Source of the DNA: Escherichia phage ECO07P1
Sequence record: OP172784
Strand: one strand, 5' to 3'
DNA length: 64,000 nucleotides
In this document: piece after piece, positions 23,014 through 25,205 of the stretch
How the letters are laid out: each line of letters begins with the position of its first letter
Numbering within the stretch: position 1 is the stretch's first letter
Notes under the pieces: generated by a model
What the model saw: the letters and a program-made list of their open reading frames with translations, nothing else
What the model was told of the DNA's origin: nothing
Database searches by the model: none
Program-made: the position numbers and the translations under genes

Positions 23014-23086
23014 TGGGAATTAGCCAAGTTGGTAAGGCACTGGATTTTGATTCCAGGATGCAAAGGTTCGAGTCCTTTATTCCCAG
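23014..23086 (+). tRNA. tRNA-Gln (anticodon UUG)
   Basis: Manual cloverleaf: acceptor tgggaat/attccca, anticodon loop ttTTGat, T-loop GTTCGAG. Confidence 0.85.
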
Positions 23087-23087
23087 C

Positions 23088-23174
23088 GCGAGAATGGTCA
23101 AATTGGTAAAGGCACAGCACTTAAAATGCTGCGGAATGATTTCCTTGTGGGTTCGAGTCCCACTTCTCGCACCA
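23088..23174 (+). tRNA. tRNA-Leu (anticodon UAA)
   Basis: Acceptor gcgagaa/ttctcgc, anticodon loop ctTAAaa, long variable arm, encoded CCA. Confidence 0.85.
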
Positions 23175-23179
23175 AATTT

Positions 23180-23253
<74 letters not shown>

Positions 23254-23263
23254 ATTTAATTTA

Positions 23264-23337
23264 CTCCGTGTAGCTCAGTTTGGTAGAGCGTCTGCTTTGG
23301 GAGCAGAATGTCGCAGGTTCAAATCCTGCCGCGGAGA
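23264..23337 (+). tRNA. tRNA-Pro (anticodon UGG)
   Basis: Anticodon stem tctgc/gcaga, loop ttTGGga; T-loop GTTCAAA. Confidence 0.8.
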
Positions 23338-23339
23338 CT

Positions 23340-23429
23340 GGAGGCGTGGCAGAGTGGTTTAATGCACCGGTCTTGAAAACCGGCAGTCGCTCCGGCGACT
23401 CATAGGTTCAAATCCTATCGCCTCCGCCA
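23340..23429 (+). tRNA. tRNA-Ser (anticodon UGA)
   Basis: Acceptor ggaggcg/cgcctcc, loop ctTGAaa, long variable arm, CCA. Confidence 0.85.
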
Positions 23430-23434
23430 GTTTT

Positions 23435-23510
23435 GCTGATTTAGCTTAGTAGGTAGAGCAACTCACTTGTAATGAGAAGGTCGGCGGTTCGATTCCGTCA
23501 ATCAGCACCA
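23435..23510 (+). tRNA. tRNA-Thr (anticodon UGU)
   Basis: Acceptor gctgatt/aatcagc, loop ctTGTaa, T-loop GTTCGAT, CCA. Confidence 0.8.
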
Positions 23511-23511
23511 A

Positions 23512-23586
23512 GGCCCTGTAGCTGGAAGGTTCAAGCAAGCGACTCATAATCGCCAGATGGTGGTTCAATTCCACCCAGGGCCACCA
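23512..23586 (+). tRNA. tRNA with CAU anticodon (Ile2-type or Met; T4 tRNA-Ile has CAU)
   Basis: Acceptor ggccctg/cagggcc, loop ctCATaa, T-arm ggtgg-ttcaatt-ccacc, CCA. Confidence 0.75.
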
Positions 23587-23599
23587 AATTAAGAATTAA

Positions 23600-23686
23600 G
23601 GGGAGTTATCCCGTAGAGGTAGCGGTGTGGACTGTAAATCCATTGTCATTGCGACTCGGGTGGTTCGACTCCATCACTCCCCACCA
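23600..23686 (+). tRNA. tRNA-Tyr (anticodon GUA)
   Basis: Acceptor ggggagt/actcccc, anticodon stem gtgga/tccat, loop ctGTAaa, long variable arm, CCA. Confidence 0.8.
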
Positions 23687-23690
23687 ATTT

Positions 23691-23765
23691 GGATGTGTAG
23701 CTCAATGGCAGAGCGATCGCCTGTTAAGCGATTGGTTATAGGTTCGAATCCTATCACGTCCGCCA
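23691..23765 (+). tRNA. tRNA-Asn (anticodon GUU)
   Basis: Anticodon stem atcgc/gcgat, loop ctGTTaa, T-arm atagg-ttcgaat-cctat, CCA. Confidence 0.8.
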
Positions 23766-23769
23766 AATC

Positions 23770-23845
23770 CGAGGCATAGCTCAGAAGGAAGAGCAAGGAC
23801 CTTCTAAGTCCTAGGTCGTAGGTTCGATCCCTACTGCCTCGACCA
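23770..23845 (+). tRNA. tRNA-Arg (anticodon UCU)
   Basis: Acceptor cgaggca/tgcctcg, anticodon stem aggac/gtcct, loop ctTCTaa, CCA. Confidence 0.85.
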
Positions 23846-23861
23846 ATTAAGTGAGGAAAAT

Positions 23862-24212
23862 ATGAAAGGTAATGTTTATTTAGTAGTTCATGATTTAACA
23901 TTCTATTTTAATCATAATGACACTGTTATTTCTGAACGCGTAATTAATTTGCTTTATCAGCACGCAGATTATGTTTATGTCGAAAACGAATACGGTCATT
24001 GGCAATTTCTCAAAAATCGTTCATTTGGTTTAGATGGTTACGAATACTTTGAACGTAAAGACCTTTTAGATAAAATTCCATTATCTACACAATATCAAAA
24101 TCACAAGTCTTTACATAAATGCCGTCCAATTCGAAATGTTGAATCTGCGTATGAAGCAATTGATTTGTGGCGTAAACGCCGTGAACAGATTGATGCTTTA
24201 AAAGAATATTAA
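23862..24212 (+). CDS. hypothetical protein
   Basis: 116-aa ORF right after the tRNA array; SD gaggaaaa. Confidence 0.6.
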   Translation: MKGNVYLVVHDLTFYFNHNDTVISERVINLLYQHADYVYVENEYGHWQFLKNRSFGLDGYEYFERKDLLDKIPLSTQYQNHKSLHKCRPIRNVESAYEAIDLWRKRREQIDALKEY

Positions 24213-24214
24213 GA

Positions 24215-24553
24215 AACCGGGTCGCTACCGGTAAGTCGTCGGACTGATGTTCCCTGGGTAAGGACTGGCATTAACAAATCTTTACGATTTGTTAATGTCC
24301 CCTTACATCACAGCAGAAACGGCGCACCGAATTATCGATTCGAGGAAATATCTTTGCCGTAAGCCGAGTAGCGTTTTTGACGGAACGTTCGGATATGGTC
24401 GAGATATGGCCTTTTAAAAATATTAAGTAGCGTCAACTGCTTAATAACCGGGTTCGAATCCCGGCGTTTCGTACAAACACTTGCCTTAGCAGGTGGAACC
24501 CCGACAAGGTTGCCGCAAGGCTTAGCCCCGACCGAAAGGTTGGGGCTTTTTAG
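24215..24553 (+). ncRNA. structured noncoding RNA region (position of T4 stable RNA species 1/2, rnaC/rnaD)
   Basis: About 340 nt, GC-richer, no ORF; several hairpins and a tRNA-like T-arm ccggg-ttcgaat-cccgg; ends in a terminator. Confidence 0.45.
24525..24553 (+). terminator. rho-independent terminator
   Basis: gccccgacc-gaaa-ggttggggc followed by TTTTT. Confidence 0.55.
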
Positions 24554-24641
24554 TTTGAATCACTCGGATAACGCTGTTACGGATAATAACAAAGTAATAA
24601 ATAATTAATAACCAACCGATAGATTATTTCAAGGATTTTAA

Positions 24642-25205
24642 ATGAAAACTTATGCCGAATTTTTAACCGAAGCAGCAAAATTACCATCTGAAGCAGAACT
24701 TACTAAAGTATTCTTCCAATTGGACCCAAAAGACCGTGGCGATTTTCTTAAGTGGAAAGCTAAAGCTATTGAAATGTATAACATTGATAATAGTTCTTTT
24801 ACGATGAGTCAAGAAAATAAATTCAATAAAGCATTTTTCAAAATTTCTAAGAAACTGGCATCTGGCGCTCAGGTTCCTAAATCTGCCTTAGCTACTCCTG
24901 AACGTGCGCCTGTTAAAATTTCTAAGAATATGTTCGACACTAAAAAATACGTTAATGCTTTGAATAAAGCTCTTGATGCATTGGATGATGCAAAGAAGGC
25001 AGCCCGTGATCTTCAAGACGTGTACATCGATTTTGATCGTAAAACTAAAGGTTCTATTTCAAATAGCGAACGCAATAGTGTAAGCGTTTATTCTGATAGC
25101 CTTGACGTTCTTGGCGATGCGTATACTGAAATTAAAAATCGTATTAACACCGCATCTAAACTAAAAGCTGCCGCAGAAGCTATAATAGCTAAACTAGATA
25201 AATAA
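24642..25205 (+). CDS. 187-aa protein with capsid-targeting sequence (candidate internal protein)
   Basis: N-terminus MKTYAEFLTEAA (CTS-like); lysine-rich helical remainder. Confidence 0.7.
   Translation: MKTYAEFLTEAAKLPSEAELTKVFFQLDPKDRGDFLKWKAKAIEMYNIDNSSFTMSQENKFNKAFFKISKKLASGAQVPKSALATPERAPVKISKNMFDTKKYVNALNKALDALDDAKKAARDLQDVYIDFDRKTKGSISNSERNSVSVYSDSLDVLGDAYTEIKNRINTASKLKAAAEAIIAKLDK

Follow-up and report, generated by a model that had tools for sequence, protein, structure and literature searches.

Positions 24215-24553 of the window (the whole 64,000-nt stretch of Escherichia phage ECO07P1 analysed here, record OP172784) very probably form the 3' end of a phage tRNA transcription unit, consisting of orthologs of the T4 RNAs rnaD and rnaC and, behind them, a conserved trailer with an intrinsic terminator. 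The analysis supports reading this feature as a rediscovery of the known T4 genes, and with it the preliminary description, made from the sequence alone, which had placed the T4 stable RNA species 1 and 2 here: the annotated rnaD and rnaC of both RB27 and T4 align to this position. Species 2 is rnaD and species 1 is rnaC, small stable RNAs known since the 1970s. What is added here is their coordinates (Table 1), a covariation-backed tRNA-mimic fold and a candidate 6-bp loop-loop contact for rnaC, and the core of rnaD, and hence two RNA families embedded in tRNA arrays that lack database models and are often misannotated as hypothetical proteins or odd tRNAs. The function of rnaC and rnaD has been open for approximately 50 years (PMC3014915, PMC9697503), and no new category is needed to accommodate them.

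Table 1. Features of the tRNA/rnaD/rnaC locus in window coordinates.
Feature	Position	Strand	Basis or detail
Array of 10 tRNA genes	23014-23845	+	ARAGORN and Rfam
116-aa ORF, phrog_3355	23862-24212	+	between tRNA-Arg and rnaD
rnaD (T4 'species 2' RNA) ortholog	~24209-24329	+	RB27/T4 alignment; ~119-121 nt
rnaD hairpin P1, ACCGG/GUCGCUA loop/CCGGU	24216-24232	+	RNAalifold columns 8-12/20-24
rnaD long stem P2	24235-24327	+	closing helix 24235-24241/24320-27; helix 24248-51/24312-15
rnaD P2 invariant internal loop GACUGA/GAAA		+
rnaD P2 variable apical hairpin	~24255-24309	+
AAUUA spacer between rnaD and rnaC	24330-24334	+	outside both annotated RNAs in RB27 and T4
rnaC (T4 'species 1' RNA) ortholog	24335-24473	+	RB27/T4 alignment; 139 nt
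rnaC acceptor-like stem, 7 bp	24336-24342/24465-24471	+	two conserved central U.U mismatches
rnaC arm I, long irregular hairpin	24343-24412	+	apical hairpin 24371-24388, loop UUGACG 24377-24382
rnaC hairpin II, 10 bp	24421-24446	+	6-nt loop CGUCAA 24431-24436
rnaC T-arm CCGGG/UUCGAAU/CCCGG	24448-24464	+	no spacer before acceptor-like 3' strand 24465-24471
Conserved 33-nt trailer element CACUUGCCUUAGCAGGUGGAACCCCGACAAGGU	24478-24510	+	first part is a 7-bp hairpin
GCC-GCAA-GGC hairpin, GNRA loop	24512-24521	+	fold of trailer
Intrinsic terminator of tRNA/rnaD/rnaC unit	24524-24552	+	10-bp stem (7 G-C), GAAA, TTTTT

Locus and homology to T4 rnaD and rnaC

The stretch is richer in G+C (48.4%) than the window as a whole (35.3%) or the upstream ORF (31.1%), as the preliminary description had remarked, and the stable hairpins it saw were confirmed by shuffling, with z-scores of -4.10, -4.28, and -4.57 for rnaC, rnaD, and the trailer, respectively, and none of 200 shuffles folding as well in any of the three segments. 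The tRNA-like T-arm and the terminal terminator that it pointed out are likewise in place.

A 501-nt query around the stretch was searched with blastn against 50,697 phage records and matched 806 of them, almost all T4-like; in these the depositors have mostly annotated either nothing or a 'hypothetical protein' over it. Under the match, RB27 (KM607000) carries the annotations 'rnaD, species II RNA' and 'rnaC', at 1799-1919 and 1925-2063 of the RB27 locus (L001), respectively, and T4 (NC_000866) lists rnaC as 'small, stable RNA; species 1 RNA' at 70908-71046 and rnaD as species 2 RNA at 71053-71171. All RNA ends in the window were transferred by alignment from these annotations. By this homology the region is predicted to hold two RNAs, of 119-121 nt and 139 nt, split by AAUUA, with the trailer (24474-24552) lying outside both annotated RNAs and belonging to neither.

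The rnaC ortholog is identical to that of T4 at 136 of 139 positions (97.8%) and to that of RB27 at 138 of 139 (99.3%), and the 80-nt trailer shares 95% identity with T4. For rnaD identity is 87.6% to T4 and 90.9% to RB27, the differences being confined to the apical hairpin and the core invariant. Covariance models built for rnaC (R1) and rnaD (R2) score 164 bits at 24335-24477, the sole copy in the window, and 151 bits at 24209-24334, respectively. Strand and gene order also match T4: rnaC lies on the strand of the tRNA cluster, 3' of rnaD and 5' of the operon terminator, which closes the cluster. The distribution takes in approximately 750 phage records; neither family was found in E. coli genomes or the genome collection, and both thus appear to be phage-only.

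The preliminary description had proposed an Rfam search, and no family reaches threshold in the region. Among all families of Rfam 15, hammerhead and other ribozymes, Y RNA, 6S, and SRP included, only the 10 tRNAs pass at gathering threshold in the window, and when E values up to 10 were admitted over 23840-24700 the best sub-threshold matches had E of at least 0.7. The search finds nothing because rnaC and rnaD have no Rfam family.

The tRNA genes upstream are ordered Gln, Leu, Gly, Pro, Ser, Thr, Met/CAU, Tyr, Asn, and Arg, the last of which occupies 23770-23845. The tRNA-Tyr gene (23600-23686) scores 30.2 bits against RF00005, for which the gathering score is 29, and the other nine score 59-74 bits. 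T4 differs in carrying eight tRNAs and the homing endonuclease gene segB, whereas the phage of the window has ten tRNAs and no segB.

The region does lie downstream of this array, as first described, though not directly after it, since a 351-nt ORF encoding 116 aa stands between tRNA-Arg and rnaD. This ORF, which has no Pfam match, occurs in T2 and UGKSEcP1 but not in T4, RB27, or G9062, where rnaD begins 1-2 nt 3' of tRNA-Arg (1 nt in T4). An ORF is likewise inserted at the junction in T2, PTK, and SP18, so that its presence is a common variant of the locus and no argument against rnaD orthology. The same slot holds a different ORF, of 79 aa, in SP18 and pEC-M719, and in T4 segB sits just 5' of tRNA-Arg. 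The tRNA-Arg/rnaD junction looks like an insertion hotspot. The RNA homologous to rnaD begins at approximately 24209, about 6 nt before the noted start of the region at 24215, and there overlaps the stop codon of the ORF (TAA, 24210-24212); this overlap leaves the rnaD 5' end less certain than any other coordinate. With its 5' end in a stop codon and not beside tRNA-Arg, rnaD of this phage may be made differently.

Structure of rnaC, rnaD, and the trailer

Both rnaC and rnaD are structured RNAs whose plus-strand base pairing is under selection. The rnaC set comprised 27 distinct homologs from Tequatro-, Karam-, Gelderland-, Kanagawa-, Winkler-, Gapriver-, Moon-, and Marfavirus phages and uncultivated contigs, and all share five helices, namely a closing stem, arm I, hairpin II, the T-arm, and a loop-loop helix. 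In this alignment 97.9% of 918 cells are paired and 17 of the 34 pairs change on both sides; none of 500 shuffles matches this, and sliding the partners by 1-3 columns leaves only 33-46% paired. The plus strand is the functional one, because dozens of G.U cells would be A.C mismatches on the minus strand.

Covariation was found at all five pairs of the arm I apical stem and at nine of the ten pairs of hairpin II, and the middle pair of the T-arm changes from G-C to U-A and A-U among homologs. Arm I falls into two sequence classes, both of which form the long hairpin with further compensatory changes. The five standard pairs of the acceptor-like stem are paired in every one of the 27 sequences, one of them as A-U in 11 and G-C in 16, a covariation that amounts to a single evolutionary event.

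rnaC is a tRNA mimic in which a long arm and a 10-bp hairpin replace the D and anticodon arms. Like tRNA (RF00005), it has a 7-bp closing stem joined without a spacer to a 5-bp T-stem with a UUCGAAU loop, and this stacking of an acceptor stem on a T-arm with a UUCRANY loop is both conserved and covarying; unlike tRNA, it has no D-arm, anticodon arm, or CCA, carries two U.U mismatches, and is 139 nt long. No cloverleaf with an anticodon arm was called by ARAGORN or RF00005 in 24209-24553. Real tRNAs give weak end-to-end matches to model R1, which fit a shared acceptor/T-arm 'top half'.

Two lineages vary these parts. The rnaC homolog of Serratia phage LC53 (L021 1126-1269) keeps a T-stem (CCUGG/CCAGG) and has UGCAUCC in place of the UUCGAAU loop, so the canonical T-loop is not strictly required in every lineage. 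In Marfavirus-type copies (L020 1201-1343, L028, L029, and L054) the acceptor-like stem is followed by CGUUCCG-U-CCA, so that a CCA-like end is encoded in place of the U-ACA of T4-type copies, and the homologs with this end are the sole ones with a changed loop pair.

Between the apical loop of arm I, UUGACG, and the loop of hairpin II, CGUCAA, complementarity is complete in 27 of 27 sequences. The arm I loop is invariant apart from an A to G change in the Marfavirus clade, and in that clade (three sequences), the only one with altered loops, both have changed, to UUGGCG and CGCCAA; the computed duplex energy is -5.5 kcal/mol for the common pair and -7.6 kcal/mol for the Marfavirus pair. This loop-loop covariation is one evolutionary event in one clade, and the weight of the pairing therefore lies in the 6/6 complementarity of otherwise invariant loops, together with the matching double change and the strongly covarying stems that flank them. 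A crude all-against-all column scan for further tertiary covariation was uninformative because clade structure alone gives many single-column coincidences. Pattern scans of IMG/VR, metagenome contigs, and GTDB genomes for more divergent rnaC returned known types, chance matches, or nothing, so that the covariation still stands on that one clade. For the contact to form within one molecule, arm I would have to fold back on itself.

For rnaD, 21 variants were folded with RNAalifold and distant homologs were added later via model R2. The RNA opens with a 5' hairpin, and the long stem behind it combines an invariant core at its internal loop with a tip that can be exchanged. The core of the whole RNA, almost invariant in the 21 variants, is made up of P1, which an AAG linker joins to the closing helix, together with the GACUGA/GAAA internal loop and GUUCCCUG/AUCACAGC. 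In P1 an A-U pair becomes G-C in five sequences, and with the distant homologs included all five pairs change on both sides; columns 40 and 113 exchange U-A for A-U, and in the distant homologs the closing helix exchanges G-C for C-G. At the apex three mutually unrelated sequences occur (T4, JS98, and T2 types), each of which forms a hairpin. With the distant homologs, and in an alignment fitted by the model itself, 94.9% of cells are paired and 14 of the 22 pairs have changed on both sides.

These distant relatives come from Karam-, Moon-, and Marfavirus loci and score 25-37 bits (E 3e-7 to 4e-4) with R2. Such rnaD-like RNAs were located at L009 461-569, L014 785-890 (minus strand), L025 6805-6911, L037 334-438, and L020 690-789, directly 3' of tRNA-Asn or tRNA-His and unannotated in their genomes, and they have in common the motifs AAGUCGUC, UCCCUG, and GGCGC. 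The resemblance of the rnaD core to a hammerhead (CUGAUG...GAAAC) was considered and rejected: the helix topology is wrong, with one continuous stem and no three-way junction, column 113 pairs with column 40 and not within a CUG/CAG helix, and no Rfam ribozyme matches.

The 33-nt trailer element is nearly invariant in Tequatro-, Dhaka-, Gapriver-, and Mosigvirus loci, and it stands directly 3' of rnaD in JS98 and AnYang, both of which are without rnaC. The GCC-GCAA-GGC hairpin after it is dispensable, since SP18 and pEC-M719 have lost it and JS98 carries a replacement. The terminator consists of a hairpin (24524-24547) followed by TTTTT on the transcribed strand, and its stem covaries in JS98 (GGCCCUUCC/GGUUGGGCC). 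The AACCCCGAC part of the 33-nt element resembles the terminator 5' strand; an antiterminator pairing on this basis was rejected, since in JS98 the terminator stem has changed and the upstream element has not. The element could belong to a third, terminator-ended RNA.

Maturation and possible functions

The rnaC and rnaD families sit in the tRNA arrays of at least eight phage genera. In other Tevenvirinae genera both lie directly between tRNA genes with spacers of 1-5 nt, rnaC-like genes being flanked by tRNA-Trp or tRNA-Met on one side and tRNA-Gly on the other, across A/U spacers of roughly 5 nt, and rnaD-like genes lying right after tRNA-Asn, tRNA-His, or tRNA-Arg. A 5-nt A/U spacer like AAUUA also separates rnaC homologs from the CCA end of the upstream tRNA in other genera. 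The two are independent modules, since rnaD occurs without rnaC in JS98, AnYang, PSTCR6, and pEC-M719.

Their location between tRNA genes suggests that tRNA-processing enzymes probably release rnaC and rnaD. The host enzymes that mature the neighbouring tRNAs would free both RNAs from the polycistronic transcript, the rnaC 5' end presumably being made by an RNase P cut at the foot of the acceptor-like stem. RNase E prefers A/U-rich single strands and may cut within the AAUUA spacer, after which 3' exonucleases would trim both RNAs back to their closing stems. Closed, compact folds would then make them stable.

In T4, rnaC and rnaD are late RNAs of unknown function, detected by northern blot and RNA-seq, whose mature forms accumulate as abundant stable species (PMC9697503), and their roles are also stated to be unknown in a review (PMC3014915). 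A SNP in the rnaD region was the sole change common to three T4-like phage lines evolved on ECOR34, in which virulence rose from 0.17 to 0.98 (PMC12685909). This SNP hints at a host-specific role, and rnaD may be a second host-interaction RNA.

With no anticodon and no CCA end, rnaC cannot decode. Ahead of a purely cis role and of regulation by base pairing we rank, tentatively and as no more than a possibility, a trans-acting role in which rnaC would be the decoy or sponge of some host or phage factor whose normal target is the acceptor/T-arm 'top half' of tRNAs. T4 deletions of the whole tRNA region are reportedly viable on laboratory hosts, which counts against a decoy function.

That dispensability favours the second reading, in which neither RNA has a trans function and both serve only in cis, as structured spacers or as decayed tRNA genes, to aid processing, stability, or termination of the operon transcript. 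Such a cis role would also explain why rnaC and rnaD are always found within or at the end of tRNA arrays and why rnaC retains just the tRNA parts that processing enzymes need. However, the sequences of unpaired loops and internal loops do not vary from genus to genus, a constraint for which a mere spacer has no use, the mature RNAs are stable and abundant (PMC9697503), the two RNAs occur independently and at different array positions, and a SNP with a host-specific effect falls in the rnaD region (PMC12685909). A cis role is considered unlikely.

The rnaC family fills tRNA-like slots in tRNA arrays, and tmRNA and bacterial Y RNA (YrlA) share its principle of a non-decoding RNA that carries an acceptor/T-arm mimic on a long helix. 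Some tRNA-like RNAs of the tmRNA or YrlA type are encoded in phage tRNA arrays. At the region itself ARAGORN called no tmRNA, Rfam returned none at E up to 10, and there is no tag reading frame; for YrlA no sequence or model match was obtained (Rfam, E up to 10). GOLLD and ROOL, like rnaC and rnaD, are phage-encoded structured RNAs of unknown function that often lie beside tRNA islands, and they are highly expressed late in infection (PMC12286853). They are 500 to over 800 nt long and assemble into 8- to 14-mer nanocages, whereas rnaC is 139 nt and shares no homology with them.

Kissing loops of ROOL and GOLLD that had been predicted from covariation, and were first read as tertiary contacts, proved to be intermolecular (PMC12286853). 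By a more speculative scheme, which we regard as rather improbable, rnaC would found a family absent from Rfam of tRNA-array-embedded tRNA mimics in Tevenvirinae and Marfavirus, and its loops would pair between molecules to give head-to-tail, RNA-only dimers or rings displaying several tRNA 'top halves' that trap a host tRNA-binding defence or processing factor. Such dimers or rings, if real, would be a miniature of the ROOL and GOLLD assemblies, which likewise occur beside phage tRNA islands.

Less probable than a cis role is that the RNAs are small regulatory RNAs acting by base pairing on host or phage mRNAs, with the trailer (24474-24552) as a possible third, 3'-end-derived small RNA. The conserved single-stranded motifs would suit such a role, as would the trailer, in which a terminator hairpin and its U-tail come after the conserved 33-nt element, and 'small regulatory RNAs' is a label that the literature applies loosely to rnaC and rnaD (PMC9697503). 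The 6-nt loops of rnaC, however, complement each other and need no outside target, and no Rfam small-RNA family matches.

Protein and tRNA annotations over the locus

Two readings of the locus itself were also weighed. It is very improbable that rnaC is a real, unusually long, aminoacylatable tRNA with a tRNA-Sec-like fold at 24380-24472 and ACGGAACG as its 5' acceptor strand. Rfam gives a weak tRNA-Sec match there (17.3 bits, E = 1.8), and 'tRNAs' of 95-96 nt have been called inside rnaC homologs by ARAGORN and by depositors; but the match is far under the 47-bit gathering score, ARAGORN is silent at rnaC in the window, and the anticodons called in the homologs disagree between phages (Met, Phe, and '???'). 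The annotated mature T4 rnaC, moreover, starts 45 nt upstream of this fold and has no CCA end. The fold was dropped because its 5' acceptor strand is not conserved: ACGGAACG is missing in Gelderland-, Kanagawa-, and Marfa-type homologs, and a G-to-A change elsewhere fits the local hairpin instead. The 95-96-nt calls are likely false and inflate phage tRNA counts; examples are the 'tRNA-Met', 'tRNA-Phe', and 'tRNA-???' at L005 1546-1640, L025 7816-7911, and L002 1670-1765.

The region was first described as having no ORF, which holds biologically and not mechanically, since ORFs of up to 42 aa are present and one of them (24289-24417) matches phrog_24262. A conserved protein ORF had been named as the finding that would overturn the RNA reading, and this ORF was judged to be an over-annotation. 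That the region encodes a small protein is hardly credible, even with an E value of 3e-34 against phrog_24262 and a 'hypothetical protein' annotated here in many deposited genomes, as the 42-aa frame has a TTG start and no ATG, straddles the rnaD/rnaC junction, ends early in T4, does not survive in phages without rnaC (18-40 aa remain when rnaC is missing or the rnaD tip is of another type), and carries substitutions that track RNA pairing and not codon position. The phrog_24262 family exists because gene callers kept calling the same conserved DNA. Covariance models for rnaC and rnaD would clean up hundreds of phage annotations. The phrog_24262 profile itself, of 47 aa, was apparently assembled out of spurious ORFs that had been called over the rnaD/rnaC junction.
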